Sequence record: NC_048196.1
From: Escherichia phage vB_EcoM_Schickermooser
Length of the DNA: 64,000 nt
Strand: one strand, 5' to 3'
The position numbers and the translations under genes were made by a program. Each line of letters starts with the position of its first letter. Position 1 is the first letter of the stretch. Under the pieces are notes generated by a model. The model was not told the DNA's origin. It worked only from the letters and a program-made list of their open reading frames with translations, and did no database searches. Below, in pieces: positions 18,385 to 37,035 of the stretch.

Positions 18385-18428
18385 GCTAGAACCCACCTAA
18401 ATCGAACAGAGACGCTCTAAAATAGAAA

Positions 18429-18744: not shown

Positions 18745-18762
18745 AAGGGGCCGAAGCCCCTT
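18745..18762 (-). terminator. recurrent stem-loop AAGGGGC-CGAA-GCCCCTT
   Basis: same hairpin recurs at 30844 and 37013. Confidence 0.4.
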
Positions 18763-18769
18763 GAGTGGT

Positions 18770-19585
18770 TTATTTGTTTAAGTGGTCTTCGACCATTTTA
18801 ATGAAACCTTCATTGCTGAAGGCTGTTGCAGCTTTTTCTCGGTAAACAAAAACTCCACGATCTTCATAGAGAAGTGTTTCTTCGTAATTAACTCCAGGGT
18901 TAACTACAACCATTTTTGTACCCATACTAAGTGCAGGAAATAATTCCCAATTAAAATTGATAACTTGGTTTGAACATCCTACTACTACAACCAAATCTTG
19001 CATGGTCAAAGTATCGAACAAGTGAGCCATATCTGCATACAAAGGTGCAGCCTCACCAAAAAATACAACATTAGGCTTCACCCAGTTATAATCATCTATG
19101 TTTATACTATTGTAACCAATATCTACCAGTGTTTTGTAATCTCCAGGATGCATACGGTAAACTACTTCAGGAAGATATCCGTGTACGTGAATAACAGAAT
19201 CTCTGTCTACACCTGCTCGCTCTAGTAGATCATCAACGTTTGTTGTCAAGTTTACTATTTGGTTAGGATATTCCTTAAACCACTTTGCTATTTGAATATG
19301 TGCAGCATTAGGTTGTACATCTTTAAGCTCAACACGTCTTTTGTTATAAAATTCGTGTGTTTTGGCATACAAATCCATACCGTTCTCGTCTACACCACCG
19401 ACCACTGGAAGATCTGGAGATGTTCTAACACGATAACCTGCTTGGAAAGCTCCAATATCGCAGACCTCTTCTAAATCATATTCTTCCCATAAAGCACGAC
19501 CACTATCTGTGTCTGTTCTAAATGTTCGAATCCCACTGTCTGCACTTAAACCTGCACCGCTTACAAAAATCACTCGTCTTGGCAT
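18770..19585 (-). CDS. Sir2-family NAD-dependent deacylase/ADP-ribosyltransferase
   Basis: GAGLSADSGIRTFR matches the sirtuin GAG(I/L)S..GI..FR signature. Confidence 0.65.
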   Translation of the reverse strand: MPRRVIFVSGAGLSADSGIRTFRTDTDSGRALWEEYDLEEVCDIGAFQAGYRVRTSPDLPVVGGVDENGMDLYAKTHEFYNKRRVELKDVQPNAAHIQIAKWFKEYPNQIVNLTTNVDDLLERAGVDRDSVIHVHGYLPEVVYRMHPGDYKTLVDIGYNSINIDDYNWVKPNVVFFGEAAPLYADMAHLFDTLTMQDLVVVVGCSNQVINFNWELFPALSMGTKMVVVNPGVNYEETLLYEDRGVFVYREKAATAFSNEGFIKMVEDHLNK

Positions 19586-20055
19586 TCTTCCTCCTCAAAT
19601 GGATCATAAGAATTGTACTCGTAAGTATCATCTTCTGAAAATTCTACTTCGAAATAAATATCAAACTCTGCAAACAGACGTAGGATGTTAGCCATGCTGT
19701 AATAATTATCGTAGGCAGATTCAGCTTCATAGTAAACATAAAGCAAATGGTTAGCCTTATCATCTTCCAAATATTTCCCGTCTGCATACGCATAGTCTGC
19801 ATATGCTTTACCTGCATCTTCCACAAGAGAACGATCAAGCAGAGTAGGAAATGGTTTCTCTTTTTCTTTTAGTTTGCTCACTAACCAATGTGCAATATCA
19901 TTCCATTCTGCATCCATACCACTAAAGCAACTTGCTTCTTCTCCAAAAGAAGCTTCTCCTAAATCGCCACTAATACGAATAACATTAGATGAATTATAGC
20001 CACACGTTTCACAATCAGAGTAACTATTATGCACATTGACATTTACTTGAAACAT
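19570..20055 (-). CDS. acidic hypothetical protein
   Basis: 161-aa ORF rich in D/E/Y. Confidence 0.5.
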   Translation of the reverse strand: MFQVNVNVHNSYSDCETCGYNSSNVIRISGDLGEASFGEEASCFSGMDAEWNDIAHWLVSKLKEKEKPFPTLLDRSLVEDAGKAYADYAYADGKYLEDDKANHLLYVYYEAESAYDNYYSMANILRLFAEFDIYFEVEFSEDDTYEYNSYDPFEEEECQDE

Positions 20056-20113
20056 ATTCCCTCCTATAAAAGAAAAGCCCCCTGAAACAGGAGGCTTTGT
20101 TCAGATGCTGGCA

Positions 20114-20767
20114 CTATACCAGACTTTGTAGGTATTTGTCAAGGGCTTCTTGATCGCCTTGACAAACATAGCAACGGAAGTCTTGAGCCGAAGGTTGTTT
20201 ATTTTCATCCCAGTCCCAATAAACATTACCCTTATAACGTGAACCAGGAAACTCAAAAGAGGCTGTATGTGTAATGTATCCTGGGCCACCAATGAAATCA
20301 CAGAATGAGAATTGGGGGTATGCCGCCTTTACTGCCTCAATAAACCAAGCTTTACGATCTAAAGCTTCATTGATGCTATACGCATGTCTCTCCATTTCTT
20401 CCCACGTTTTCCAGACACTTCTCTCATCAGGAGAAAAGACAAGCCATTCTGGAAGGTATAGAGTGTCATAGTAATCATCATATTCGATCTCGGAGGCGCA
20501 CGAAGCTGACTCCTCCAGTTTTGAGTAATCAAAAGCAGAATATACCCACCAACCATCTTCCAGTAACGCTTTGATAGGGACGAAGCCTTTATCAGCATAT
20601 TGATCGAATTGTTTGACACGGTGGCTTGTGCAGTCTTCAAACTCACATTCTAAACGATATGCACCTTTTCGACGAGCCTCAAGACCGTGTGTACTGAAAA
20701 TAACAACACTTCCTTCACCATCATTACGATCTACTTGATAAGCAACCACTGGTTTTGAATTTGACAT
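20114..20767 (-). CDS. hypothetical protein
   Basis: 217-aa ORF. Confidence 0.5.
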   Translation of the reverse strand: MSNSKPVVAYQVDRNDGEGSVVIFSTHGLEARRKGAYRLECEFEDCTSHRVKQFDQYADKGFVPIKALLEDGWWVYSAFDYSKLEESASCASEIEYDDYYDTLYLPEWLVFSPDERSVWKTWEEMERHAYSINEALDRKAWFIEAVKAAYPQFSFCDFIGGPGYITHTASFEFPGSRYKGNVYWDWDENKQPSAQDFRCYVCQGDQEALDKYLQSLV

Positions 20768-21450
20768 TATTTCTCCTTATCTAGAAGATTGTTAGACAAA
20801 AACACTGCACGAGCAAAACCACGTGCGGTTAGTGATCTAAGTTGTTTTGTTTTTGCACTAGCTCCACCTAAGCTTTTCCAACCCCAGAAGCAGCCTATAT
20901 GATCTACTGGTTTCTTCACTGGTTGAACAAAACCATTGCCGTGCCAAATACAAGTTTTCTTTGTATACCCATCACGGGTAGGCATTTTAGGATGAAAGCT
21001 TCCTTCCTCTTCAAACAAATACCCACCATACTCATAAGGATCAAAGTAAAAATCGGGTTTACGCCATAAGGTTGAAAGTTTACCTACTGGGTTCTCAATC
21101 ATCCAAGGAACATTATATTTGTTACCCAAAGCTTCCACTACACGAATATTAGCTAAAGCTTCATCCAATTCCTCTGTGCTGCGTTCGTGTTTGCTGCCAC
21201 TACCTGCTAACATAGTGCAAGGTGGAAATCCAAAAATAATATCGGGTTTAGGTATCCCATGATCTTCAGGGTTGAATGTAGAATCTATCCAGGCATTCAC
21301 ATAGGTTATGTTTGGGTGCTCCATCCTAACCTCGTATTTACCGTGATCCCCTTCATCAGCGTTTACACAAAAACACTTGTGACCTGCTTCGGCATAACGT
21401 AACACCATGATCCCAGATCCGTCAAACATAGACAAAACTGTTTTACTCAT
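20767..21450 (-). CDS. C5-cytosine methyltransferase-like protein (variant motifs)
   Basis: ATG 21450 after GGAGGGG; FDGSG (motif I-like), GFPPCT (PC motif IV-like), ENP (ENV-like). Confidence 0.45.
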   Translation of the reverse strand: MSKTVLSMFDGSGIMVLRYAEAGHKCFCVNADEGDHGKYEVRMEHPNITYVNAWIDSTFNPEDHGIPKPDIIFGFPPCTMLAGSGSKHERSTEELDEALANIRVVEALGNKYNVPWMIENPVGKLSTLWRKPDFYFDPYEYGGYLFEEEGSFHPKMPTRDGYTKKTCIWHGNGFVQPVKKPVDHIGCFWGWKSLGGASAKTKQLRSLTARGFARAVFLSNNLLDKEK

Positions 21451-21856
21451 TACCCCTCCATTCAAGACAAGCCATAACTTTACGCCAATCACTTTCTGTA
21501 AGAAAAATCTCGTTTGCTTTCTTCCACAAATCTAAATCGTGAAGGGTTGGAATACGGTATGTTAGTTCACAGAATCTATGCTCTTCTTCTGTAATATAAC
21601 CAAAATGCAGAGCCACATCGTGAAACCAACACCAACCATGCATCTCTCGAACAACATGGTCATGTTGAGACATTATTTTATGCCGTAAACCTAACCAACA
21701 AGGAACAGATACTTTAGTAGTCTTTAATCTGTGATCAACAGTATTAGAGTATTCAATAATAGCTGTCAGTTTCAATCGTGCTTTTTCTAAATCCTCATGC
21801 GTCACTTTGAAATAACTTTCTGAAAGATATCCACACATATTAATAACCTCCTTCAA
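21443..21856 (-). CDS. hypothetical protein
   Basis: 137-aa ORF overlapping neighbours by a few bases. Confidence 0.5.
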   Translation of the reverse strand: MKEVINMCGYLSESYFKVTHEDLEKARLKLTAIIEYSNTVDHRLKTTKVSVPCWLGLRHKIMSQHDHVVREMHGWCWFHDVALHFGYITEEEHRFCELTYRIPTLHDLDLWKKANEIFLTESDWRKVMACLEWRGNE

Positions 21857-22781
21857 AAGGCTTTACTACATGTTGATTAGCTTTAAAACGTTCAACATAG
21901 TCGTTTTCGCCCATGTTTTCATATAGCTTAATAACAACATAAAAGTTTTCCCAAGCATATTCCCTAAACCAACCACTAGTGATGGATGTGCAGACTTTAG
22001 ATAAAGCCATTATAAAACTTTGCTTAGGGGTTGGACCTCCGATCTCTCCACCGAAAGGAATTTGTGAACGTTCCAAAGCCAAAACACACGCTTCTTCATA
22101 AACACCTAACAGGCGCACATGTTTTGGTTGAGCAAAAAACTTTTCTTTGCTGGTCATAACTTCACTTCCATCTTTCATATAAGATTTATATGCCGGAGCA
22201 TCCATTACCGCGATTGCTTCATGGATAGAATCATGATCATAAACATACGGAACCTCATCACCTTTAAAAAAGTCTTTACTTTTTACGTTTAAGTTCGGAT
22301 GAGAGTAAGTGTATGTTTCTTTCTCACGCAACTCATAAATACTCTTAAGATTTTCTGGGATCTTTGCGCCCAGTGACCGCATGAAATGAATATCTTTCAT
22401 AGTTTTAAAGAAGTGAGGACTATCCTTTTTAAAACGATGACTCATTTTAAGAAGGTAGAGCACATCTAAAGGAGCAACAACATGTCCCGCGTAAGTTCGA
22501 CGAACATCATCAGAATCTTCACAATAACTAATCAAAGCTTCTGTGCTATCTCCTTGAGAAGCAATATCGTATTCCAAATGTGCACCAGCTATCATTTTGA
22601 CATGGCCTTTGTTTCCTTTACGTTCTACAAGTTCAACAAACTCCTCTTGAGAGAACATTTTTGATAATTCTTCCCACTCTTGTTCTGTACACAGGTAATC
22701 TAAATCTACACAAGGGCGATACAAGTCTTTTCCCATGTCCATAGCATGAATTTGCAATGCACGGCTACCAATTAACACCAT
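21840..22781 (-). CDS. hypothetical protein, possible nucleotidyltransferase fold
   Basis: N-terminal LIGSRALQ...DLDYL resembles GS...D.D of minimal NTase folds; GAGGAG SD. Confidence 0.45.
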   Translation of the reverse strand: MVLIGSRALQIHAMDMGKDLYRPCVDLDYLCTEQEWEELSKMFSQEEFVELVERKGNKGHVKMIAGAHLEYDIASQGDSTEALISYCEDSDDVRRTYAGHVVAPLDVLYLLKMSHRFKKDSPHFFKTMKDIHFMRSLGAKIPENLKSIYELREKETYTYSHPNLNVKSKDFFKGDEVPYVYDHDSIHEAIAVMDAPAYKSYMKDGSEVMTSKEKFFAQPKHVRLLGVYEEACVLALERSQIPFGGEIGGPTPKQSFIMALSKVCTSITSGWFREYAWENFYVVIKLYENMGENDYVERFKANQHVVKPFEGGY

Positions 22782-22811
22782 AATATTTCTCCTCTATTGG
22801 TTGATAGGTTA

Positions 22812-22840
22812 AGTTTATCAAGCTTCCAGATTCCTGTCAA
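22812..22840 (-). promoter_or_regulatory. sigma70-like promoter, minus strand (TTGACA-N17-TAAACT)
   Basis: immediately downstream of terminator hairpin, upstream of the 22781 start. Confidence 0.5.
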
Positions 22841-22845
22841 TAAAA

Positions 22846-22863
22846 AACCCGCCGAAGCGGGTT
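22846..22863 (-). terminator. intrinsic terminator, minus strand
   Basis: AACCCGC-CGAA-GCGGGTT hairpin followed on minus strand by TTTTTTA. Confidence 0.55.
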
Positions 22864-22871
22864 ATTATTTA

Positions 22872-23144
22872 CTAACACATTGAGGAAGAAGAGATCCAAA
22901 CACCTCTTGTGGTTAAACCGTTTTCATCCAACTCTACACCATAATCTTCACAAATGAAATCAATATAGTGATCTGCGGCTGGCGTTCCTGTAGGGTAATA
23001 AGTTTCTCCGTTACCGTAGTCACCTATCCAAGCTTGTTCCTGAAACTGTTCACAAAGTTCTTCAATCTCCTTACGAAACTTTCTTTGTGCTTGTTCCATC
23101 TCTTTAACTTTCTTTTTTATCAGCAGTTCGCCTTCAGACTCCAC
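22872..23144 (-). CDS. small acidic protein, 'SS-C tail' family member
   Basis: C-terminus GVWISSSSMC; two paralogs downstream. Confidence 0.5.
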   Translation of the reverse strand: MESEGELLIKKKVKEMEQAQRKFRKEIEELCEQFQEQAWIGDYGNGETYYPTGTPAADHYIDFICEDYGVELDENGLTTRGVWISSSSMC

Positions 23145-23153
23145 AATCTCTCC

Positions 23154-23414
23154 TTAACAGCTACTACTGTGCCAAACGCCTTGAGAATTAACGACGAAAC
23201 CATCATCACCTTCACCATAACAAGAAGAGGATTGCCAATCTTCAAAACAGATTGCGTCATTTTCTAAACTAAGACCAAAACCAGCATCTTCAGCTTCTTT
23301 TGTAAGTTCGTCCACTAAAGCCATAATAGCTTGGGCTTTTTCAGTTAATTCTTCAACATTACGATCACTCATTAGTATTTCTCCTCCGGTTGGAAAACTG
23401 AACGACAAGCCCAC
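23154..23414 (-). CDS. small acidic protein, 'SS-C tail' family member
   Basis: C-terminus GVWHSSSC. Confidence 0.5.
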   Translation of the reverse strand: MGLSFSFPTGGEILMSDRNVEELTEKAQAIMALVDELTKEAEDAGFGLSLENDAICFEDWQSSSCYGEGDDGFVVNSQGVWHSSSC

Positions 23415-23686
23415 ATACTAGCTTCTTTTAAATGTTTAATAGCACAACGGATTTGATCAATACGCTCGTATGCAACATCTAATTCTTTTTCTGTGCCGTC
23501 AAAAGACCCATGATATGCTTCACAATACTCTTCCTCTAAAGCTTTGAAGATTAAACCTAAACGCTCTTCTGCATCTTTAATAGCGTTAACCTTGCCAATC
23601 TTATCGTCAGTATGCGCCTTATAACCTTTGATATCTTCGATTCCCACTTTACCTCCTATTAACAACTTAAAGAAGATGGATGCCAA
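23372..23686 (-). CDS. hypothetical protein
   Basis: 104-aa ORF. Confidence 0.45.
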   Translation of the reverse strand: MASIFFKLLIGGKVGIEDIKGYKAHTDDKIGKVNAIKDAEERLGLIFKALEEEYCEAYHGSFDGTEKELDVAYERIDQIRCAIKHLKEASMWACRSVFQPEEKY

Positions 23687-23856
23687 TTTGTCCCAGTATT
23701 CTCATTTTCATCTTCTGGATCATAATAACCCCCCATCCCATATTCAGGGGAGAAACGGAAACCTTCTCCAGTCTCGTCTGCTAACTGCTCTGCTTCCGCT
23801 AAAGCATCATAAGCTGCTTTTACGGCTTCTTCTACTGTTTTAAACTTGGTCGTCAT
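23659..23856 (-). CDS. small acidic protein, 'SS-C tail' family member
   Basis: C-terminus TNWHPSSLSC. Confidence 0.5.
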   Translation of the reverse strand: MTTKFKTVEEAVKAAYDALAEAEQLADETGEGFRFSPEYGMGGYYDPEDENENTGTNWHPSSLSC

Positions 23857-24130
23857 AAAATTTCTCCTCTCCTAAAGACATGGTGACATGAAATGCACGA
23901 TATGTAAATTCGTTGTCCGTTGTGTTTGAATAAAACTCAAATTGAACAACACCGTCTTGAGAAGACAAATACATGCCAATTTGAACTGTACCTTCTGGTA
24001 CCAGGTAAGCATACTCTGGGCGTAGTGTTACATTGTAAAAATAAAGTTCCCCAACACCCATTTCATCCCAAGCTTCCCAAGCGGTAACGAAGTTACTTTC
24101 AAAACTTGTTACTGATCCGAACTCTGCCAT
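23840..24130 (-). CDS. hypothetical protein
   Basis: 96-aa ORF. Confidence 0.5.
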   Translation of the reverse strand: MAEFGSVTSFESNFVTAWEAWDEMGVGELYFYNVTLRPEYAYLVPEGTVQIGMYLSSQDGVVQFEFYSNTTDNEFTYRAFHVTMSLGEEKFYDDQV

Positions 24131-24621
24131 AAAACCTCCTCAATCTTGTAGTTTGACTCCATCTCCAACACATTTCCACGAACGTCTCTCCGAAGAAAGG
24201 CATAAGCTTTATTAGGTATTGTAGACTCATATTTAACCATATCTGGCACAGCAAAAGATACTACTACTCCTGCTGGACTTCTGTCAAGAGCCTTATTAAT
24301 ATTTCTAAGGATATCATTAGCCAAGATCTCTGCCAATTCTCCAAGAACAGTTTCGGTTATATCTTTATATCCCATTAAGTATTTGTTGATATCTTTCATC
24401 TCTGTATTGTTCAGAGTATAATCTAAAGGATAGAAATTCAAAGCGGAGTCACTTTTATGTGTCCACATGAAATGTACCCGATCCGAGCAGAATCGTAACC
24501 CTCTACGAAGAATATCTTCTACAACAGGGAGAATTTCTTTTGTCACATCATTAACCATGTTGTAATCTAAGATTTCTGCCAAATTTGTTCTTTGTTCACC
24601 ACGTTTACGTTTAGGAATCAC
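24109..24621 (-). CDS. hypothetical protein
   Basis: 170-aa ORF. Confidence 0.5.
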   Translation of the reverse strand: MIPKRKRGEQRTNLAEILDYNMVNDVTKEILPVVEDILRRGLRFCSDRVHFMWTHKSDSALNFYPLDYTLNNTEMKDINKYLMGYKDITETVLGELAEILANDILRNINKALDRSPAGVVVSFAVPDMVKYESTIPNKAYAFLRRDVRGNVLEMESNYKIEEVLWQSSDQ

Positions 24622-25192
24622 TTGTTATTGCCCTCATTACCAAAGGTCGTAGAAAATCGTAAATCTCTTGTTTTGTTTTCCCACGAATGTTTAAACAAGG
24701 AACATTATTGGCTTTAGCTATCTTCCAAGCCGTAGCTGTTCCACCTTTTGCATCTCCATGTTTATCAGTATTAGCACAAGCCAACAAGAAACATGATGGA
24801 GCAGGATTCTCCAAATCTCTACCTAACACTTGATGCACATTACGTTGGTGCAATTTTCTAGCACCCTGCTTAAGCTTTTCATAGGCTGGGTGAACATCTT
24901 TGATCCATTGCACAGAGATAGCATAGTTCATTGTATCTGGTTTTGCAAGAACAATAACATCCCCTGGAATCTGATTACCTTTGAAATTTTCCCAAGGAAC
25001 ATAAATCTCCTTGTTAGTAGGATTTTCAGACTCTTGGACACCTGTTTCAAAAGCAGAATCACTACCCTCTGCCTTCCCAGACCTTAATTTAAACCCAAGG
25101 TTTGAAAGCCATTTCCCTATACCTACCATCAAAGCCCACTCTTCTTCGGATATGTCTCTACTTCCAACTCCCGTATAGAACAGTTCTGCCAT
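24611..25192 (-). CDS. DprA/Smf-like (SLOG-type Rossmann) protein
   Basis: ATG 25192 after GAGGTGA; YTGVGSRD and SGKAEGSD motifs. Confidence 0.45.
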   Translation of the reverse strand: MAELFYTGVGSRDISEEEWALMVGIGKWLSNLGFKLRSGKAEGSDSAFETGVQESENPTNKEIYVPWENFKGNQIPGDVIVLAKPDTMNYAISVQWIKDVHPAYEKLKQGARKLHQRNVHQVLGRDLENPAPSCFLLACANTDKHGDAKGGTATAWKIAKANNVPCLNIRGKTKQEIYDFLRPLVMRAITSDS

Positions 25193-25199
25193 AATCACC

Positions 25200-25508
25200 T
25201 CAACAAGTAATTTCAAAAGGTGTATACGGTTCCGTATTTCTCATGATCCAAGGACTGCTAGGATTGCTCGGATCATAAGGACCAAAAGGTTTTATGGTCG
25301 GTTGTGTTTCTTTCTTCTGAATCTCTTCAAAAATACGACGAAGTTCAGAATATTCTTGATCCACCATAAGATTCGGTGCATCTGATTCTACAGCTTGCAG
25401 GTTATCTTCCTTAAGAACAATCTCACGAACAAGATTAACATCTTCTGTTTCTAAGATAACTTCTTTACGGATATTACCTACACTTTGAATAATTGTAATC
25501 TTATACAT
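25200..25508 (-). CDS. hypothetical protein
   Basis: 102-aa ORF. Confidence 0.5.
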   Translation of the reverse strand: MYKITIIQSVGNIRKEVILETEDVNLVREIVLKEDNLQAVESDAPNLMVDQEYSELRRIFEEIQKKETQPTIKPFGPYDPSNPSSPWIMRNTEPYTPFEITC

Positions 25509-26251
25509 TAATCCTCCTCAAGAGTTGAATAAAATTGAAGACCACCGTCCATATCGAAATAAGCAAATGTTAAGTTATTATTGAACACAGATCCAGTATC
25601 CATATAAACACGATTCGCATTGATAATAGGTGTTTTTACATAAGAGTGTCCATGAAACACATAATCCACACCCATCACAACAGGAAGTTTCATTCCCTCT
25701 TTAGCACAGTCTACCATATCTCTGTCCCACATAAGTGCTTCAGCAAAACGGTTTTCCTGTGTTTTTGTCATCTTCGAAATGTATTCTGGAATATCTGTTA
25801 CAGGGAGATATTCCAAAGAAGATGGATACCCACCATGAATAAACGCAAGTTTCATGCCTCTGTAGTTAACAATGAGAACAACAGGTAAATCTTCTGTCAT
25901 CATTGCTAAGGCTGTAGCTCCTTCTTCACCACATTCTTCAAAGACCGTATATCCTCCATTTTGATACCAACACTCGTAGTAGCTACGATCTCCTTCCAGC
26001 ATACCTTTAATCATCATGTCTTCATGATTGCCACGAATAGCGTAGCGATTGTGTTTACGAGTAAATTCTAAAACACAACGAAAGTTTTGCTTTCCACGGT
26101 CAGTAAGATCTCCTAGAGATACAACCACATCTGTATCTCGGATACCTAACTTTGCCTTTCCTTTTTCATACAAATTATAACAACCGTGTAGATCTCCAAT
26201 TATAAAAAGATCTTGATCGCTTTTAACAGTAATTTCTCTGTGTATGATCAC
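25508..26251 (-). CDS. Ser/Thr protein phosphatase (lambda-phosphatase-like metallophosphoesterase)
   Basis: GDLHG, GDLTDRG and GNHE motifs. Confidence 0.7.
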   Translation of the reverse strand: MIIHREITVKSDQDLFIIGDLHGCYNLYEKGKAKLGIRDTDVVVSLGDLTDRGKQNFRCVLEFTRKHNRYAIRGNHEDMMIKGMLEGDRSYYECWYQNGGYTVFEECGEEGATALAMMTEDLPVVLIVNYRGMKLAFIHGGYPSSLEYLPVTDIPEYISKMTKTQENRFAEALMWDRDMVDCAKEGMKLPVVMGVDYVFHGHSYVKTPIINANRVYMDTGSVFNNNLTFAYFDMDGGLQFYSTLEED

Positions 26252-26577: not shown

Positions 26578-26587
26578 TCCTTCCTCC

Positions 26588-27178: not shown

Positions 27179-27369
27179 TCTACCAAAGAGAATTCCGCCT
27201 CTTCCAGGTAGATTACAGACCTTGTTGCATGATATTTAACGCTCCAGAAATTACCTTCGCGCCGTAAAAGTATCTCATTCACATCAAGATTGCTTAGAAA
27301 AACCATATAACTTAAAGCTTGTTGACGCGTTGAGAATTGTTTCTCTAAAAGTTCTTCTCCGCTCTGCAT
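27175..27369 (-). CDS. hypothetical protein
   Basis: 64-aa ORF, ATGA overlap. Confidence 0.45.
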   Translation of the reverse strand: MQSGEELLEKQFSTRQQALSYMVFLSNLDVNEILLRREGNFWSVKYHATRSVIYLEEAEFSLVE

Positions 27370-27414
27370 AATCCCTCCTTAAAATACTCCCTCCGAAAAG
27401 GGAGTATAAGTATA

Positions 27415-27854: not shown

Positions 27855-27866
27855 AGTTCACACTCC

Positions 27867-28376: not shown

Positions 28377-28794
28377 CTAAAATCTCCTCTTTTGTAATAT
28401 TATCCAACTCTTTAAAGGATGAAATCTCGTTTAATAATCCTATTTGATCAGCCTCTAGAGGATAAGTGTTTTTATCTGTTTTTCTAGACAGAATATCTTC
28501 AACAAACTTATCAATAGCCAAAGAAGAATCATAAAATTTTAAAAGTTGGTAATCCATAGGAGATATTTTGTCATCTCTTAGAAATATTTCTAACATGTTT
28601 TCAGGAGTATCGTGGTTTAGTTTATGTTCACCAAAAATATTAACTTCGTAAACATCTTTGCCAAACCAACGTTTCTTCTTTTCAACAGTATAGGTTTTTG
28701 CCACCAGACCATCTAAACAGTTTCTTGCCCTCTTACATGTTTGACGGTAAGAGTGGATAGCGCCTTCAACAAACTTAGCAGGAACTTGTAACAT
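28360..28794 (-). CDS. hypothetical protein
   Basis: 144-aa ORF. Confidence 0.5.
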   Translation of the reverse strand: MLQVPAKFVEGAIHSYRQTCKRARNCLDGLVAKTYTVEKKKRWFGKDVYEVNIFGEHKLNHDTPENMLEIFLRDDKISPMDYQLLKFYDSSLAIDKFVEDILSRKTDKNTYPLEADQIGLLNEISSFKELDNITKEEILDGIRL

Positions 28795-28818
28795 TATTAA
28801 TCTCCTATGTTTAAGAAA

Positions 28819-28834
28819 TGCCCCCGAAGGGGCA
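28819..28834. terminator. intergenic stem-loop TGCCCC-CGAA-GGGGCA
   Basis: GC-rich hairpin flanked by T-rich sequence on both strands. Confidence 0.4.
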
Positions 28835-28839
28835 GTTTG

Positions 28840-29532
28840 TTAAATAGCGGTTCCTTCGAAATCCGCCACATTTACGAGATTAATATTTTCAGATTTAGAA
28901 GTCAAGTTGTTTTCTGCAACAGATTTTTCTTCAGTATCCGCCTCGTTACCTGCCACGTTACGAGGTTCTTCTTCACCGTAGGGATTACCGAATTTCAAAA
29001 GATTGATCAATTCTTCTTTGGAGAAGTTTTCTAAATCATCATCTGTTAATTCAATAATCTCGTCTTGTTCTTCAATAAATGTTTCACCACCAGAAAAAGC
29101 ATCTCGCTTTTTAGCTACTTCCATAGCCTGTTCTGGTGTTGCCCCTGCATCAAGAGCAGCTAAAGCAAAGTCTGACCCGCTTCCTACCGCATAATATTCT
29201 TCATCAATCGGATATGCACGTGTTGGGTTATTACCTTCGTGCAGGAAAATACGTCCGTCTGGATGAACAACAAGTGCAATAAACTCTTCATCTTCTTTAT
29301 CTGGATCAGAGTGAATCATCAAACCAGGGACAGCATCACGTGCTGCTTCGCACTGTAGATTTTGTTCAAACCATTGAAAGAAAGAAAGCACGGAGGTCAG
29401 ACGACCAGCACCACCTACAAGGTAATCTCCAATTTTTCGGACCTTTTTGAAATTAATAGAATCTACACGTCCACCAAAAGTTACCTTACCGTCACTCAAA
29501 ATCTTATTTTTGGTTGCAATAATTGTCGTCAC
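28840..29532 (-). CDS. HslV/proteasome-beta-like Ntn-hydrolase peptidase
   Basis: N-terminus MTTIIATKN (Thr right after Met), GGAGR and AVGSGSDFALAA resemble HslV; acidic C-terminal extension. Confidence 0.55.
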   Translation of the reverse strand: MTTIIATKNKILSDGKVTFGGRVDSINFKKVRKIGDYLVGGAGRLTSVLSFFQWFEQNLQCEAARDAVPGLMIHSDPDKEDEEFIALVVHPDGRIFLHEGNNPTRAYPIDEEYYAVGSGSDFALAALDAGATPEQAMEVAKKRDAFSGGETFIEEQDEIIELTDDDLENFSKEELINLLKFGNPYGEEEPRNVAGNEADTEEKSVAENNLTSKSENINLVNVADFEGTAI

Positions 29533-30035
29533 TATTCTTCCTCCTCTGTTAATGTTTTAAGAACCGCTTTCCCGCCATTCACATATTTGCAGATGTATTC
29601 TATCGCACGTAGTGTCTCTTTGTCAACAAAAATTTGATCAGACGTTGCGAGCGGGTTATTAAGAAGATCACTACAATCACGAACAAGCAGTGCTTTCTTA
29701 TTAAACAAATTACTTAAGAACAGTAACTTCGCCTCTTCTTCTGTTATGTGCAGAAGGCTAGGATCGGAGCCAGCTATTCCTATTATACAATCAAACAAGC
29801 TTTCTTTACTATCAGAAAGTTCTTGAAAATGGTTTAAAAGCCAATCTTCTCCTAGACACCAACATTTAAACATTTCCAGTTTATCTCGGAGGGTCATATT
29901 CTCTAAAGTAAGAGCAATCTCTTTTTCAATATGGTTTACACAAATTTGACGAAATTCGTTAGGTTTTACGAGTCCCGTTTGATAGCACTCATCTATACCG
30001 CTTCTTCCGATAGCTATTGTTGCTACACCCATCAA
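29532..30035 (-). CDS. hypothetical protein
   Basis: 167-aa ORF. Confidence 0.5.
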   Translation of the reverse strand: MMGVATIAIGRSGIDECYQTGLVKPNEFRQICVNHIEKEIALTLENMTLRDKLEMFKCWCLGEDWLLNHFQELSDSKESLFDCIIGIAGSDPSLLHITEEEAKLLFLSNLFNKKALLVRDCSDLLNNPLATSDQIFVDKETLRAIEYICKYVNGGKAVLKTLTEEEE

Positions 30036-30067
30036 TCCTCCTTATAAATGGCTTCCCTGCCACATTA

Positions 30068-30826
30068 TTAAATAAACACTTCAGTAATCAGTTTAGACAA
30101 ACGTCCACGTTTATTATCGTCCGTTGTCAGTTCAACGTATCCAATAAAATCTACAATTGGCTCACGAACACCTTCTTCATTTTCTGGATATAAAAGTTCC
30201 AAAATTTGATGCAGACCATTGCTACGTTTTTTAATTGCATATGTCTGGCGAACATCGCCTAATACAATAACATGCGTATTAATACCTGCACGTTCAATAA
30301 GAAGTTTAAGTGTTTCTGTTGACATAAGTTGTGCTTCGTCAATAATGACGATTGTATTATCCAGGGTAGCCCCCAACAAATAGTTAGGAATATTCAATTC
30401 GATCTTACCTGATCCAATATCGTTTTCCAATTTGTTGGCTGTCATGAATTGCTGGAAAATACGTTTTGTAGATTCATAGTGTGCTGCTAGTTTATCTGTT
30501 TTATCCCCAGACAAGAAACCAATCTGGTCATCTCCGACTTCAGTAGGGTTCTTGATAAAAAGTAGTTTACGGAAGTCTCCTGAACGAAGCATCTGCAAAG
30601 CTTTCCATAAAGCAACAGAGGTTTTACCAGTCCCTGCCGGAGCATTTACAACAGTCAGATCATTCCAAATCATGCTTTGAACAATCTTATTTTGGTCCCC
30701 TTCAGGCATAAATTCATCTAAACGGTAATCGTCATTACCTACCGCTTTTGCTGCATAACGGCTTTCAATCTTTGCTGAATTAGCCAGTTTCTGCCGTTGT
30801 GTTTTAGCTGCGGTTTTATTTCCCAT
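30068..30826 (-). CDS. phoH: PhoH-like ATPase
   Basis: Walker A NAPAGTGKT; start set to ATG 30826 (AAGGAG upstream) because the listed N-terminal extension covers the terminator hairpin. Confidence 0.75.
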   Translation of the reverse strand: MGNKTAAKTQRQKLANSAKIESRYAAKAVGNDDYRLDEFMPEGDQNKIVQSMIWNDLTVVNAPAGTGKTSVALWKALQMLRSGDFRKLLFIKNPTEVGDDQIGFLSGDKTDKLAAHYESTKRIFQQFMTANKLENDIGSGKIELNIPNYLLGATLDNTIVIIDEAQLMSTETLKLLIERAGINTHVIVLGDVRQTYAIKKRSNGLHQILELLYPENEEGVREPIVDFIGYVELTTDDNKRGRLSKLITEVFI

Positions 30827-30843
30827 AGTAGCACTCCTTTTAG

Positions 30844-30861
30844 AAGGGGCCGAAGCCCCTT
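30844..30861 (-). terminator. recurrent stem-loop AAGGGGC-CGAA-GCCCCTT
   Basis: between lysozyme stop and phoH SD. Confidence 0.45.
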
Positions 30862-30863
30862 TA

Positions 30864-31364
30864 TTAGTTGTAAGCATCTAAAGTTCCAGAAGTCAGAACT
30901 TTAATTACTCGTTCAGCACGGTTTGGCGTCTGGCTATACCATCGGCTTTTACGCATGTTTTTACCTGCTTGAGTATAATATGCATTGCTGATTAAAGTCA
31001 AGCTATTTTGAAACCCTTCAGCACCTTTTAACCCCAACTGGAAAACCATGTTGATTATTCCCAATTTACGAGTATCACTCACCTTATCATAGATTGGTGA
31101 TAAGATAGCACTGTTTTTTATGTCTCTCTTCACTTTTGCAACATCGTCAGCAAAGATTTGACGGGCTTCTTTTTCTGTGATAACTCCATTGGTCTTACGA
31201 CCAAGGAGATTATCTAAGATTTGAATAGCCTTTGCTTTATCTTTTATTTTAGTCAGAAGGTGTCCTATGCCGACTGTCCAATAACCAAGATGGTCTTGAT
31301 AAACAGTAAGCTTCAGTCCTTCATCGACTCGTAGCATATCAAACTCATCTACTACTTTAGCCAT
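30864..31364 (-). CDS. T4-type lysozyme (endolysin, muramidase)
   Basis: DEGLKLTVYQDHLGYWTVGIGHLL and SRWYSQTPNRAERVI closely match T4 lysozyme E as recalled. Confidence 0.8.
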   Translation of the reverse strand: MAKVVDEFDMLRVDEGLKLTVYQDHLGYWTVGIGHLLTKIKDKAKAIQILDNLLGRKTNGVITEKEARQIFADDVAKVKRDIKNSAILSPIYDKVSDTRKLGIINMVFQLGLKGAEGFQNSLTLISNAYYTQAGKNMRKSRWYSQTPNRAERVIKVLTSGTLDAYN

Positions 31365-31371
31365 TTACTTC

Positions 31372-31521
31372 CTATTCGTCGTCTCCTACTCCGTGATCCA
31401 ACTCATTAAACAACAGATGTTCTGGAGAAGTTTCACGTTTTGGTTTCGTTTTCTTTATGTTGGACTTCAGCTCATTTGCCAAAGCACGAGAAAAGATCTT
31501 ACGTTTCTGTTTACTTTTCAT
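31372..31521 (-). CDS. small basic protein (49 aa)
   Basis: GGAG SD upstream; K/R-rich N-terminus. Confidence 0.3.
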   Translation of the reverse strand: MKSKQKRKIFSRALANELKSNIKKTKPKRETSPEHLLFNELDHGVGDDE

Positions 31522-31526
31522 AATTG

Positions 31527-31787
31527 TTACTCCGCAATTTGAGCCATGAGATCACGCAGTTCGGTAAAACCGCCTACGTATGTTACCTCCCCGTTCACTT
31601 CAGACAAAATTTGTGGAAATGTGCGTGGAGGAACTCCGGTAAGATCAACAACTGTTTTAGTCATTGATTCTAAATCGTAGTCTTGGTCAAGACTTAAATA
31701 TTCAAACTGTTTATTGCGCATGGTTAATAGTTGTTTTGACATTTCGCAAAATTGACAGTTAGGTTTACCAAAAATTACAAATTCCAT
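31527..31787 (-). CDS. glutaredoxin (NrdH/Grx-like)
   Basis: CQFC redox motif in GKPNCQFCEMSK; 86 aa. Confidence 0.65.
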   Translation of the reverse strand: MEFVIFGKPNCQFCEMSKQLLTMRNKQFEYLSLDQDYDLESMTKTVVDLTGVPPRTFPQILSEVNGEVTYVGGFTELRDLMAQIAE

Positions 31788-32629
31788 TACCTCTCCTTAT
31801 TAAGTAATACTGCTAAAGACCGTTCAATACCTTTATTTAAATCTGATTTTGTAAGATAGTGACTGGTTACTAGTTGTGACTTCACCGGACGTGCTGCTGG
31901 AGCATTATAGGTTGAAGCTGATACCGCCGATATCTTAACAGGTTCTGGCATCTGTGTCAAGATCTTTTCCGCAAACTCCGCCCAAGAAATAAGATGGCTT
32001 CCTGCAAAATGGTAAGTCTTTACAGATCTTGACCAACCTGTTTTTAATACTTCAAAAATAGCTTCTGCTAAATCTGGGGCATATGTTGGACAAGAGAACT
32101 GATCTGCAACGATAGTAAAATCACGTTGTCCATCATTATAGCGAGACAACATAGTTTTTAGAAAGTTATTTCCAAATTCACTATATACAGACGCTGTTCG
32201 AATAATATATGCGTTCGGGTTAACTCCTCGCACCATTTTTTCACCGAGTTCTTTCGTATACCCATAATTGTTTATCGGGTTAGGTGTAGTATCTTCAAAA
32301 ATAGGATGAGAATAATTAAAAATATAGTCTGTAGAAATATGCACAAAATCAATTTTAAGTTTGCTGCACACTGCCGCAATATTTGCAGGGCCATAGGCAT
32401 TAACAGCCAAAGCAGTAGCAAAATCATGTTCTGCTTTATCTACAGCCGTATAAGCAGCGCAATTAATAACACCATCTACATAATCTTCAATAATAGCGTT
32501 TCGCACAGCTTCAAAATTTGTAATATCTACACGTTCTTTAGGATAAATTAAAGACACATTTGAAGGAGCCACTTTACGTAAAGCTTGTCCCAGTTGTCCA
32601 TTACCACCCAATACCAGATATGTTAGCAT
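31787..32629 (-). CDS. rmlD: dTDP-4-dehydrorhamnose reductase
   Basis: N-terminal GGNGQLG Rossmann motif; about 280 aa; last gene of rml operon. Confidence 0.7.
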   Translation of the reverse strand: MLTYLVLGGNGQLGQALRKVAPSNVSLIYPKERVDITNFEAVRNAIIEDYVDGVINCAAYTAVDKAEHDFATALAVNAYGPANIAAVCSKLKIDFVHISTDYIFNYSHPIFEDTTPNPINNYGYTKELGEKMVRGVNPNAYIIRTASVYSEFGNNFLKTMLSRYNDGQRDFTIVADQFSCPTYAPDLAEAIFEVLKTGWSRSVKTYHFAGSHLISWAEFAEKILTQMPEPVKISAVSASTYNAPAARPVKSQLVTSHYLTKSDLNKGIERSLAVLLNKER

Positions 32630-33189
32630 ACACCCTCGCTACGTAGCTGTTGAAAAGACTTAGCCATTGCATCTTTTGTTGATAAGATAGGTTTAAAATC
32701 TTCGTCAAAAATCATATCGAAGCCCCAATCAATCCCTATATCAGGATCATCCCAACGTAAACTTTGTTCGCTGGAAGGGTCGTATGGAGTTGTGCATTTG
32801 TATTCGAAGATAGCATCCATACTCAACACTATAAAACCATGTGCCAAACCAGGTGGAAGCCAGAACTGTGTATGGTGTCGTGCACGAAGAACAACACCGT
32901 CCCAAGCACCGTAAGTAGGACTATCTTTACGTAGGTCTACAGCGAAATCCAATACTTCCCCACTTACACAACGAACAAGCTTACCTTGCGGATTATTTGT
33001 TTGAAAGTGCATTCCTCGCAAAACACCGAAGTTTGATTTAGACATGTTATCTTGAACGAAAGTTTGTCTACCAATGATATCTTCATATTTTTGTTCATTA
33101 TATGTTTCTAAAAAGAAACCACGGTCATCTTTATAAACGTCTGGTTTGATAATTACCGCACCTTCAATTTTTGTTTTTTCTACTTTCAT
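32623..33189 (-). CDS. rmlC: dTDP-4-dehydrorhamnose 3,5-epimerase
   Basis: start set to ATG 33189 (GGAGG upstream, ATGA overlap with rmlA stop); DDRGFFLE cupin motif. Confidence 0.7.
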
Positions 33190-34064
33190 TTTCCCTCCGC
33201 TAATTTGAGTAGGTATTGCCCGTACTCTGTTTTCTTCAGTGAGTTTCCATGGTAGACCAAAGTCTCTAAAGAAATCCACCCTTTTTTGAAAGCAATTTCT
33301 TCCAGGCACGCAATCTTCAATCCTTGACAGTTCTCAATAGTCTGCACGAATTGACCAGCTTCCATCAGACTGGCGTGTGTTCCTGTGTCAAGCCAAGTAA
33401 ATCCTCGTCCGAGAACTTCTACTTGTAACTTCCTGTCTTCGAGGTAGCTGCGATTGATATCGGTGATCTCCAGTTCTCCACGCGCGGAAGGGGTTACTTC
33501 TAATGCACGTTGAATAACAGAGTTATCATAGAAATATAAACCTGTGACAGCATAATCTGATTTAGGATTTTCAGGTTTCTCTTCAATAGAAATAACTTGA
33601 CGATTACTCCCAAATTCAACCACACCGAATCGTTCAGGATCTTTCACCAAACACCCGAAGATACAAGCTCCGCCCCAAACATCTACCATCTCACTAGCGT
33701 TAATCAGTAGTTTACCAAAGCTTTGTCCGAAGAATAGGTTGTCACCTAAAATAAGAGCAACAGAGTCTTCTCCGATAAAATCTTTACCGATGATGAAAGC
33801 GTCCGCAAGACCTCGTGGCTCGGATTGGATTGCGTAAGTGAGTTTTATCCCAAACATAGACCCATCTCCAAGAAGATGCTCAAAGTCTTCCTGATCGCCT
33901 GGTGTGGTGATGATTAAGATATCCTTAATGTCAGCCAACATCAATACCGATAAGGGGTAGTAGATCATAGGTTTGTCATACACAGGGAGCAATTGCTTGC
34001 TCACACTGCGTGTTACCGGATGAAGGCGGGTTCCACTTCCTCCCGCCAAAATAATACCTTTCAT
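33186..34064 (-). CDS. rmlA: glucose-1-phosphate thymidylyltransferase
   Basis: N-terminus [18 protein letters not shown]. Confidence 0.8.
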
Positions 34065-34072
34065 AACCCTCC

Positions 34073-35065
34073 TTAAATCTTCTTACTCCACCATTGAGGG
34101 TTGTTTAAGTACCATTCAATCGTTGAGTAGAGATCTTGTTCAAATGTAGAGTTTGCACTCCAACCCAGTTCAGACTCTATTTTAGAAGGATTGATTTCAT
34201 AACGCAAGTCATGTCCTTTACGATCTTCAACAAAAGTTATCAAGTTGGAAGAAGGGTAGGTTCCTGCTTCTGGATGTACAGCATCCATGTAGTCACAAAC
34301 CATATAGATGATCTCCATATTGGTTTTGGGATTACGTGTTCCAACATTATACGTTTGACCTGGTTCTCCACCTGTTGCCACTTGAAGAATAGCTCGCGCA
34401 TGATCCTCAACAAAAAGCCAGTCTCGCACCTGATCGCCTTTACCATACACCGGAATCTCTTTATTCGTCAAGATACTTGTGATGATTTTTGGGATCAGCT
34501 TTTCTGGATGTTGATAAGGTCCAAAGTTATTGGAGCAGTTGGTTATCACAACAGGTAAACCGTAGGTACGGTACCAAGCTTTCACAAGATGGTCAGATGC
34601 TGCCTTAGACGCACTGTACGGGCTTGAAGGCGCATAAGCTGTCTCTTCGGTAAAGGGAACGCCAGAGTCTGCCATATCGCCGTACACTTCGTCTGTGGAG
34701 ACATGTACGAACATCTTAAGTTTATTTTTTGGGAGGAGCCTTGCAGCTTCCAATAAATTGTATGTACCAATAATATTGGAGTCGATGAAAACTCGTGGAT
34801 TCTTGATAGAATTATCCACATGACTCTCTGCCGCTAAGTGAATGATGAAATCGGGATTGCACTCTACTACTAAACTTTTGACCTGGGTTTCGTTTGCCAA
34901 ATCTGTTATGCTTAGTTTAACGTGAGTGATATCGCCTACATTCTCAATATCTGCTGCATAGCCCATCTTATCAACGACAAAAACTTCGTTATTGGGATCT
35001 TGACAAAGAGAGCGCACCACGGCACTCCCAATAAAACCAAGACCACCTGTTACCAGATAGCGCAT
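34073..35065 (-). CDS. rmlB: dTDP-glucose 4,6-dehydratase
   Basis: GGLGFIGS Rossmann motif and YSASK catalytic motif; first of rmlB-A-C-D. Confidence 0.75.
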
Positions 35066-35074
35066 CAGTTCTCC

Positions 35075-35401
35075 TTACCAGACATGTTGAGAAATAATAG
35101 TTTCCGTTTTAATGTTATATTTTTCAAGTAGCTTTGCATAGGCTTCTTTTGCATTCTCATTCAATTGCTCAAGATCTACAGCTATGCTTCCTTCTCCGCC
35201 TTCTAAATCAAGGCCATATATGCAATAAGACTCATCCGCATCGTAGAAAGGAGAGATGCGGCTTAAGTCAAGACCTTCTTGTAAGAACCAGTTAAAATCT
35301 CCGTCAAATTCTTCTTCAATTCTAGGATCTTCTCCTACAGCCTCTTCCCACTTATTAAAAGGTGCACCCTGTAACATACGCCATTCGATATCAATACCCA
35401 T
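35075..35401 (-). CDS. hypothetical acidic protein
   Basis: 108-aa ORF. Confidence 0.5.
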   Translation of the reverse strand: MGIDIEWRMLQGAPFNKWEEAVGEDPRIEEEFDGDFNWFLQEGLDLSRISPFYDADESYCIYGLDLEGGEGSIAVDLEQLNENAKEAYAKLLEKYNIKTETIISQHVW

Positions 35402-35553
35402 TTTTCATCTCCTCCTCTTCTTGAGCAGCTTTAATAATTGCTTCATAAATATCGTAAGCAATGCCTCCACAACATCTAGCTTCGAAAGCTATTGCTTCTG
35501 CAATGTGATCTGTTAATTCTCGTGGAATGCGAACATACTCTTTTTCACTCTCC
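35389..35553 (-). CDS. small hypothetical protein (54 aa)
   Basis: GGAGGTAGAAG SD then ATG. Confidence 0.35.
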
Positions 35554-35697
35554 ATCTTCTACCTCCAACCCTTCTTTTTCAAAGACTACTACTCGTCCCT
35601 CACCATGACAATTCAGGCAAGGAAATGTTACCATAATTTCCACTTCCATCTGTCCCGTCCCACCGCACACAGGACAAAAAATAAGTTTTTCAGCCAC
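35545..35697 (-). CDS. small zinc-ribbon protein (50 aa)
   Basis: GTG start 5 nt after AAGGAGG; CPVCGG ... CLNCHG. Confidence 0.4.
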   Translation of the reverse strand: MAEKLIFCPVCGGTGQMEVEIMVTFPCLNCHGEGRVVVFEKEGLEVEDGE

Positions 35698-35906
35698 TAT
35701 TCCTCCTTAATTATTTCAAATTTGGCAACACCATTTACAATAATATGACCACAAGACATAACTCCTAGCCAAGGATCGCCGTTTTTCTTCAGGCGTTTAC
35801 CGAATACATCACAAAAACCATTCTTCATTTCAGAGGCTTCATAAGAAGCCCCTTTATCAAAAACGTCTTTGAATGTGTCGATTATACCAACACATTTCAA
35901 AATCAT
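35697..35906 (-). CDS. hypothetical protein
   Basis: 69-aa ORF, ATGA overlap with nrdB. Confidence 0.45.
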   Translation of the reverse strand: MILKCVGIIDTFKDVFDKGASYEASEMKNGFCDVFGKRLKKNGDPWLGVMSCGHIIVNGVAKFEIIKEE

Positions 35907-36991
35907 TCGAAGTCAAGCTCCTCATCATCAGAGAGATCTTTGTTAGCTGAATTCAATTTGTAGTTAGTTAACTGAATCTCTTGGGCTGCTGACTGAATCA
36001 AATCAGGATTCAACCATTTTTCCATCCAAGCTAAAGGGCTATGTTTAGGTGCTTTAAACTTGGCTTTCATTTTCAATCGACGATAAATAGGAGCAGCATT
36101 GAAATAAACCCACTGTTTAGACAATTCGGCGTTAAGACCTACAATAAAACGACCTTCACTAAACAGGTAGTCACACCACTGTTCCTCTTGTTCAACAACA
36201 GTGTCGAGGATCAAAGTCAACTCTTCAATATTGTCTTCGTAAATTTTACGCCAAATTGGGTCATGCATCAATGCATCAATTACAGCATAATCCATCTTAA
36301 CATGCAAGATTTCATCTAGCATAATTTTCTGGATCAGTTTACAAGCTCCAACAAACAGTTGTTGTTCTGCCATAGCAAAAGTAGCAGAGAAGGAAGATAT
36401 AAACTGAATACCTTCTAATCCAATCAGGGCTACCATCCCTTTAAGAATCAGCAATCGAAGTTCATCGTTAGCTTCAATCAATCCTAGAGCATACTTATGA
36501 CCAGCTTCTTCCAACTGACCCATGATATCAGCAATGATACCCATACGATTGAAAATTTTATCATTAATCATAATCTGATTGATGACTTCAATTGGATCTG
36601 GAGTACATTGACGGATTATTTCAGAATACGTTAACGCATGGAGAACTTCCATTTCACTCTGCTTCATCATCATAGCACAGGCTTCATTATTACTCAAGAA
36701 TGGAGAGAACAAAGTGATGATTGATTTTGCAAGAGAATCATTTTCCCATTGGAACGATAAGTTTTTAATCATAACATCATAATTGTTTTTAGAACAAGCT
36801 ACGAAATCTTTACGTGTCTGATCCAGATTGACTTCATTCTCATCCCAATCTTGTGCTTTTTGAAGTTTGTAGAGTTTGTGCATCTCTGGATAAGTTACGT
36901 TAACAGAATCAAAGATCCCTAATTGTTCCCCTAAAAATACTGGATATTTTCCTGTTTTGTAAACTTCATTGTGTAAATTAATTGCTGCCAT
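35903..36991 (-). CDS. nrdB: ribonucleotide reductase class Ia beta subunit
   Basis: 362 aa; ferritin-like helical protein adjacent to nrdA. Confidence 0.75.
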   Translation of the reverse strand: MAAINLHNEVYKTGKYPVFLGEQLGIFDSVNVTYPEMHKLYKLQKAQDWDENEVNLDQTRKDFVACSKNNYDVMIKNLSFQWENDSLAKSIITLFSPFLSNNEACAMMMKQSEMEVLHALTYSEIIRQCTPDPIEVINQIMINDKIFNRMGIIADIMGQLEEAGHKYALGLIEANDELRLLILKGMVALIGLEGIQFISSFSATFAMAEQQLFVGACKLIQKIMLDEILHVKMDYAVIDALMHDPIWRKIYEDNIEELTLILDTVVEQEEQWCDYLFSEGRFIVGLNAELSKQWVYFNAAPIYRRLKMKAKFKAPKHSPLAWMEKWLNPDLIQSAAQEIQLTNYKLNSANKDLSDDEELDFE

Positions 36992-37012
36992 TTAAAATTC
37001 TCCTCAATAAAA

Positions 37013-37028
37013 AGGGGCCGAAGCCCCT
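37013..37028 (-). terminator. recurrent stem-loop AGGGGC-CGAA-GCCCCT
   Basis: between nrdA stop and nrdB start. Confidence 0.4.
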
Positions 37029-37035
37029 AGTTTCA

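Follow-up and report, generated by a model that had tools for sequence, protein, structure and literature searches.

Short UUCG-capped hairpins between genes of Escherichia phage vB_EcoM_Schickermooser as probable intrinsic terminators

Introduction

Why should one short stem-loop recur at gene junctions of the Escherichia phage vB_EcoM_Schickermooser? The DNA analyzed here is a stretch of 64,000 nucleotides (nt) from sequence record NC_048196.1, referred to below as the window and numbered on one strand, 5' to 3'. A first-pass annotation made from the sequence alone had noted the same GC-rich hairpin at several junctions between minus-strand genes and had proposed that its reuse reflects a dedicated RNA-processing or attenuation signal rather than generic terminators. 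On the sequence and comparative evidence presented below, we consider it quite probable that the hairpins are ordinary intrinsic (Rho-independent) terminators/attenuators, in which very short stems are made effective by a C(UUCG)G cap. The exceptional stability published for hairpins capped in this way would account for their recurrence. The phenomenon is already known, in that it belongs to a textbook class and most copies have been published as predicted terminators.

The window belongs to a Phapecoctavirus. At 99.6% identity, the region matches Escherichia phage vB_EcoM_3A1_SA_NWU along with other genomes of this group (phAPEC8/ESCO13-like, about 150 kilobases (kb)). The genome-wide census and the annotation made use of OR062524.1, a 99.6%-identical genome.

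Results

UUCG hairpins follow the stop codons of genes in the window

All of the hairpins first reported were found. AAGGGGCCGAAGCCCCTT occurs exactly at 18745-18762 and 30844-30861; the copy at 37013-37028 has a perfect stem of 6 base pairs (bp), and a one-mismatch match to AAGGGGCCGAAGCCCCTT spans 37012-37029; and the variants at 22846-22863 (AACCCGC/GCGGGTT) and 28819-28834 (TGCCCC/GGGGCA) are both perfect hairpins. As annotated, each one separates the stop codon of a minus-strand gene from the Shine-Dalgarno (SD) sequence that comes next. The hairpin itself therefore stands as described, and it is the name of its loop that must be corrected: CGAA is only the complement, and on the transcribed (minus) strand the loop reads UUCG. 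Two further copies had been missed, namely a sixth perfect one at 18107-18124, which reads UUCG on the plus strand, and a seventh at 27384-27407, in which the UUCG loop is closed by a U.G pair. CTTCGG is present in sense orientation in all six perfect copies (loop closed by 5' C and 3' G), and the copy at 18107 shows that loop orientation tracks the direction of transcription. The copies are given below in transcript sense, together with the Rho-independent terminators predicted by ARNold and published for a 99.6%-identical phage (PMC10698182 Table S3), which are cited by their record positions.

18107-18124, plus strand: AACCCGC-UUCG-GCGGGUU, between plus-strand genes 17781-18062 and 18154-18384, 44 nt after the stop; tail UUUUCAUA (5/8 T), SD 19 nt on; ARNold "Both" terminator at record 17306(+).
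18745-18762, minus strand: AAGGGGC-UUCG-GCCCCUU, 7 nt after the stop of a Sir2-family gene (18770-19585); tail UCUUAUUA (5/8 T), then SD AGGAG and ATG at 18726; ARNold terminator at record 17943(-).
22846-22863, minus strand: AACCCGC-UUCG-GCGGGUU, 8 nt after a TAG stop; tail UUUUAUUG (6/8 T; a six-U run if the closing UU of the stem is counted); ARNold terminator at record 22044(-).
27384-27407, minus strand: AUACUCCCU-UUUCGG-AGGGAGUAU, UUCG closed by U.G, 7 nt after a TGA stop; weak tail UUUA (3/8 T), then SD AGGAGG and ATG at 27369; ARNold "Both" terminator at record 26581(-).
28819-28834, minus strand: UGCCCC-UUCG-GGGGCA, 5 nt after the TAA of an HslV-like peptidase gene; tail UUUCUUAA (5/8 T), then SD AGGAG and ATG at 28794.
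30844-30861, minus strand: AAGGGGC-UUCG-GCCCCUU, 2 nt past the lysozyme TAA; tail CUAAAAGG, 5 nt to the phoH SD AGGAG, ATG at 30826.
37013-37028, minus strand: AGGGGC-UUCG-GCCCCU, 7 nt past the TGA that ends nrdA; tail UUUUAUUG (6/8 T), then SD AGGAG and the nrdB ATG at 36991; ARNold terminator at record 36210(-).

The perfect copies have stems of 6-7 bp with five G-C pairs and a 4-nt loop, and in the minus-strand copies the SD comes 4-12 nt after the stem. The exception is 22846, where the tail (UUUUUAUU) adjoins a sigma-70-like promoter (TTGACA at 22840-22835, a 17-nt spacer and TG-TAAACT) with the SD beyond it, so that a terminator precedes a promoter; here an upstream A-tract also pairs with the U-tract (fold z = -3.75). 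Genes downstream of the hairpins are mostly without an obvious promoter of their own. At all six sites that were folded, the hairpin was present in both the minimum-free-energy and the centroid structure. Energies predicted by ViennaRNA were -11.2 to -12.1 kcal/mol. The flanks of the copies are unrelated, with nothing in common outside the hairpin, and a scan of the window against Rfam at gathering thresholds returned the transfer RNA (tRNA) cluster only and no family at the hairpins.

The published ARNold terminators account for five of the seven copies and four of the six perfect ones. A consensus terminator scan called 18745, 22846, 28819 and 37013 terminator-like on the minus strand. The same scan omitted 18107, a site that is plain both in the sequence and in the ARNold predictions, and the likely reason is that G.T-extended pairing consumes part of its T-run.

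UUCG hairpins are enriched and oriented with transcription

A match of the AAGGGGCCGAAGCCCCTT type was not seen in any of 100 dinucleotide-preserving shuffles. The window holds six perfect TTCG/CGAA-loop hairpins with stems of at least 6 bp, whereas 300 dinucleotide shuffles averaged 0.16 and never had more than 2. Its perfect tetraloop hairpins with stems this long number 46, and the loop most often seen in them is TTCG (minus-strand reading), with five copies. About half of the terminator-like hairpins in the window are capped by UUCG.

We extended the search to the 150,000 bases of OR062524.1, counting perfect hairpins that had a stem of 5 bp or more, four or more G-C pairs and a loop of 3-8 nt. 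Within the 111 hairpins obtained, UUCG was sense-oriented to the local gene block eight times and CGAA was found in that orientation not once (two-sided sign test p ~0.008). Every one of the eight UUCG hairpins lies in a gap between annotated coding sequences, starting 0-44 nt past a stop codon, and seven have at least four T within 8 nt after the stem. In keeping with the recurrence first noted, the genome-wide motif search made UUCG the joint-commonest loop among GC-rich hairpins; the remaining terminator-like hairpins of the genome carry GAAA, GCAA, UUAUU and other loops.

A near-twin with one loop change, AAGGGGC-UUCU-GCCCCUU, lies at 98708-98725 (-) of OR062524.1 (L003 48708-48725), between small genes upstream of the DNA polymerase. 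It is followed by UAUAGGAG, without a U-tract, and the UUCU variant also occurs in L007 at 3485.

Relatives keep the hairpin and exchange its loop

Relatives were collected through IMG/VR searches with NrdB and Sir2, which gave five to six distinct divergent ones (NrdB 84-89% and Sir2 70-97% identical). A GC-rich hairpin is kept at the orthologous junctions of these relatives in 35 of 35 junction-by-locus cells. Their loops are as follows.

Junction 18107, plus strand: UUCG x5, CUAGU x1; same relative strand in 5/6.
Junction 18745, minus strand: GAAA x5, UACG x1; stem kept.
Junction 22846, minus strand: UUCG x6; stem and loop identical in all six.
Junction 28819, minus strand: UUCG x2, UUAG, UCAA, UCAC.
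Junction 30844, minus strand: GCAA, GUAA x3, GAAA x2.
Junction 37013, minus strand: UUCG, GAAA x3, CUUUGU hexaloop x2.

Loops are thus exchanged (UUCG, UACG, GAAA, GCAA, GUAA and others) at five of the six junctions, and 29 of the 35 fall in two well-known classes of extra-stable loop, UNCG (15) and GNRA (14), with six others. The stems change as well: at 28819, three of the seven stem pairs are altered on both sides while 94% of cells remain paired, and controls with slid partners gave none. This count is taken from the 18-nt hairpins by themselves, aligned without gaps; MAFFT alignments that included the flanks (28819 and 37013) were set aside, as the most distant hairpins were one column out of register. 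U-rich tails are conserved across the relatives at 18745, 22846, 37013 and 18107, and the sense orientation of the asymmetric loop is kept in them too. Given that loops swap and stems change by compensatory substitutions, selection acts on structure and stability class and not on one sequence.

A PhoH-based search for relatives asked whether the 30844 hairpin is linked to phoH or to the lysozyme gene; the synteny is kept in all hairpin-bearing relatives, and a single distant match has no hairpin. For the U.G-closed copy at 27384, the candidate counterpart CTCCTTG-tttcgg-CAAGGAG, at a similar offset in L005, has an identical loop on another stem.

The same 18-mer is found in many unrelated genomes

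AAGGGGCTTCGGCCCCTT is present exactly in at least 120 unrelated IMG/VR contigs and in at least 120 bacterial contigs of Alpha-, Beta- and Gammaproteobacteria, Bacteroidota, Clostridia and others. The figures that follow are for the matches listed. The bacterial contigs include Yersinia pestis, Citrobacter and Pseudomonas. Read in the UUCG sense, at least 5/8 T stand downstream in 82 of the 116 viral contexts and in 90 of the 119 bacterial ones, and the mirror side reaches this level in 37 viral and 32 bacterial contexts (Wilcoxon p = 3e-15 for the bacterial set). Many viral contexts share the order of stop, hairpin, U-run, SD and ATG. On the explanation favored below, the 18-mer arises independently in many genomes because selection favors stability in minimal space.

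Discussion

Probable terminators with a stable cap

The scenario that we favor is as follows. At cistron ends of the early/middle gene blocks, host RNA polymerase would transcribe the stem and then the U-rich tract; the UUCG loop would nucleate fast and stable folding of the 5-7 bp stem; and the hairpin would disrupt the weak rU:dA hybrid, leading to release of the transcript. A ribosome on the stop codon would often mask the 5' arm, making termination partial, and the polymerases that read through would suffice for expression of the next gene. Because the stems start 2-8 nt past the stop, within reach of such masking, termination is probably leaky. There is precedent for this: when a terminator is located a few bp past a stop codon, the terminating ribosome represses it almost completely (PMC4824070). 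Attenuation, as originally suggested, is therefore plausible in the generic sense, given this spacing and the scarcity of downstream promoters; what we do not retain is the idea of a signal dedicated to it. As 3'-end structures, the hairpins probably also shield the upstream message from 3'-exonucleases.

Comparable hairpins have been described in other systems. According to PMC8948821, which cites Tuerk 1988, T4 has many CUUCGG hairpins between its genes, with roles that include mRNA stabilization. The T4 hairpins (Tuerk et al. 1988, PNAS 85:1364) are like the present ones in having a C-G-closed UUCG loop on a short GC stem, in lying predominantly between cistrons in the mRNA sense and in occurring many times per genome; PMC8948821 and PMC3972237 associate them with termination, with the stability of RNA and with a block to reverse transcriptase. 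The present genome differs in being a Phapecoctavirus (Stephanstirmvirinae), with eight copies in about 150 kb. PMC3972237 (citing d'Aubenton Carafa 1990) describes UUCG and GAAA tetraloops as nucleating hairpins of unusual stability that function in Rho-independent termination. The UUCG/GNRA terminators of E. coli and other bacteria (d'Aubenton Carafa, Brody & Thermes 1990, J Mol Biol 216:835) have in common with the present hairpins the GC stem after a stop codon and a 4-nt loop of a kind described as extra-stable and, for most copies, the U-rich tail. Unlike typical bacterial terminators, the phage stems are at the short end (5-7 bp) and only 2-8 nt from the stop, the U-tract often abuts the next SD, and the copy at 30844 has no U-tract; their efficiency is probably low and sensitive to translation (PMC4824070). 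The hairpins also resemble those that stabilize mRNA (the T4 gene 32 leader, and 3' stem-loops blocking PNPase and RNase II) in being stable and in lying in untranslated gaps of polycistronic phage mRNA, whereas most phage copies bear a terminator-type tail.

Other explanations

Several observations weigh against a terminator reading of the whole set. The copy at 30844 is kept in all relatives with a UNCG/GNRA cap, 4-6 nt before the phoH SD, and never has a U-tract there; in the window its tail has 1/8 T. At 28819 the tail is moderately U-rich and its U-tract is weaker in more distant relatives. Both sites are absent from the ARNold list (PMC10698182 Table S3), and transcript 3'-end data for Phapecoctavirus were not found in the literature searched. 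In ViennaRNA, the advantage of UUCG on the hairpin stem was about 0.4 kcal/mol relative to the median tetraloop and 0.9 relative to CGAA; the large bonus that experiments give for UUCG was not reproduced by this loop scan, so the argument from extra stability rests on published melting data. Finally, strong sigma-70-like promoter matches are found 12-20 nt upstream of two hairpins, 18107 and a non-UUCG one at 20074-20098. An efficient terminator so close to a promoter would be self-defeating, which hints that some hairpins also act as 5'-end structures. The points on 30844, 28819 and the promoter-proximal hairpins would be accommodated if the hairpins did not terminate and instead worked post-transcriptionally, as barriers to 3'-to-5' exonucleases, as 5'-end protection after cleavage or as insulators that expose the SD, and so gave segments of one polycistronic RNA their own half-lives or translation rates. 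Such a role would suit hairpins inside apparent operons, e.g. nrdA-nrdB, and those just past promoter-like sites, whose transcripts would be protected by a hairpin at the 5' end. It would also have a parallel in the T4 gene 32 mRNA, which by the account in PMC8948821 is stabilized by a CUUCGG hairpin; this UUCG-capped leader hairpin is the best analogue of 30844. We nevertheless regard it as unlikely. Seven of the eight genome copies have a U-rich tail, needless for pure stability and kept in relatives at four junctions, and across at least 230 unrelated contexts the 18-mer shows a preference for a T-run downstream in the UUCG sense. Moreover, the two roles are compatible, so that this is a rival mainly for 30844 and perhaps 28819. 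For 30844, which would be a very weak terminator at best, a pure stability or insulation hairpin is more likely. With a little less conviction still, one may suppose that 30844, and perhaps 28819, are no terminators and belong to a class of their own, that of hairpins that punctuate an operon from within, either by setting the stability of individual mRNA segments or by coupling/uncoupling translation of neighboring cistrons. The arms of 30844 are respectively SD-like (5' AAGGGG) and anti-SD-like (3' CCCCUU), and terminator-type copies could consist of such a punctuation module plus a U-tract.

In favor of a dedicated site that is reused because its sequence is recognized by a specific processing enzyme or RNA-binding protein (RNase III, RNase E or a phage factor) are the two identical 18-mers, the third copy with its near-identical core, the tie of UUCG for commonest GC-hairpin loop genome-wide and the constant presence of an adjoining SD with GGAG. 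If sequence were what is recognized, however, orthologous loops should not turn into GAAA, GCAA, GUAA or UACG, nor stems into compensated versions of themselves; neither is constrained in sequence. RNase III needs about 20 bp, and stems of 5-7 bp fall well short of this. The copies share no flanking motif and match no Rfam family, and the occurrence of the 18-mer in at least 240 unrelated viral and bacterial contigs of many phyla argues against a phage-specific factor. Together with the ARNold calls on four of the six perfect copies, this leads us to set aside the proposal of a dedicated RNA-processing signal in place of generic terminators, which we consider very improbable. Least credible is an element acting as DNA (a cruciform, a protein-binding palindrome or a recombination/replication signal), a mobile or dispersed short repeat, or a chance recurrence. 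It is true that the stem is a near-perfect DNA palindrome and that a 10-nt direct repeat, GTAGCAATAG, surrounds the 18107 hairpin and its T-run (18098-18107 and 18139-18148, +). However, all eight asymmetric loops are in gene sense, including that of the opposite-strand copy in the opposite block, as they are in relatives; and the direct repeat, which is probably incidental, is absent from the closest divergent relative, L014, where the hairpin is present. Strict strand asymmetry and unrelated flanks lead us to exclude DNA-level and mobile-repeat readings, and chance is excluded by the shuffles.

What the hairpins offer, on the terminator reading, is a map of probable transcription-unit boundaries in the early/middle block of Phapecoctavirus, a group used in phage therapy. 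The import beyond annotation is small. The comparative result is that selection sees the stability class (UNCG or GNRA) rather than the sequence. The 18-mer, having arisen in hundreds of unrelated genomes, illustrates that an identical short hairpin can recur without being a dedicated signal.

Gene blocks and neighboring features

By the annotation of ESCO13 and OR062524.1, a plus-strand block of small genes ends at about 18384, and the long block on the minus strand spans 18454 to about 54500; the genes of the latter include Sir2, methyltransferases, HslV-like peptidase, lysozyme, PhoH, dTDP-rhamnose genes and NrdB/NrdA. The two blocks converge on a terminator without a UUCG loop that ARNold calls on both strands.

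18427-18450, both strands: bidirectional terminator with a 10-bp stem, AAAGGCACCC-AAGU/ACUU-GGGUGCCUUU, T-runs on either side; in DNA form AAAGGCACCC-ACTT-GGGTGCCTTT.

Near the two promoter-proximal hairpins we noted the following. At 20142-20113 (-), within the 3' end of a gene, there is an 11/12 sigma-70 match with an extended -10 (TTGACA-18 nt-TG-TATAGT). The terminator-like hairpin AAAGCCUCCUG-UUU-CAGGGGGCUUU-UCUUUUAU (20074-20098) comes about 15 nt past this promoter, followed by an SD and ATG, and may double as a 5' structure. Within 18059-18095 (+), shortly before the 18107 hairpin, there is a TTGACA-17 nt-GATAGT promoter match whose -10 is overlapped by the palindrome ATAGGAT-AGTG-ATCCTAT (18078-18095). 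Promoter and palindrome are both kept in L014, where the outer pair is changed compensatorily (GTAGGATACTGATCCTAC); the palindrome may be an operator or an RNA hairpin.

The RefSeq PhoH-like coding sequence of ESCO13 begins 51 nt upstream of the SD-supported ATG at 30826 (span 30826-30877 (-); L001 15822-15872). This longer start places the UUCG hairpin within the coding sequence and overlaps the lysozyme gene, and OR062524.1 has the shorter start; the ESCO13 start codon is likely mis-annotated. Elsewhere in the window, 11 tRNA genes are clustered at 55947-57868 (+), upstream of lysis (Rz-like spanin) and terminase genes. Five records labelled as Campylobacter phage (e.g. MG065650.1; host Campylobacter jejuni) are about 99% identical over 20 kb to this E. 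coli Phapecoctavirus. The host label on these records is odd, and mislabelling or contamination is possible.

A second hairpin family

A second and more lineage-specific family lies outside the window. Its hairpin, GCGGCA-AUGG-UGCCGC, occurs eight times on the plus strand between 138.7 and 147.3 kb of OR062524.1 (L004 38704-47240), and related forms are GCGGGAA-GUGGU-UUCCCGC and GGGGCG-NNNN-CGCCCC. Most copies come immediately after a strong promoter (TTGACA-17 nt-TAnnnT) and a start region with the conserved sequence TATCAC(A/G)TAGG. The copies lack a T-run, and next in order are an SD and a small early gene. The family looks like a set of 5'-terminal hairpins of early transcripts, serving as an RNA stabilizer or a regulator-binding site. 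A scan of the viral collection with the 16-mer of this family gave mostly single matches, which are possibly coincidences within coding sequences, and one contig with two copies; the only clear multi-copy array (five copies) was in a Phapecoctavirus-like IMG/VR contig, L323.

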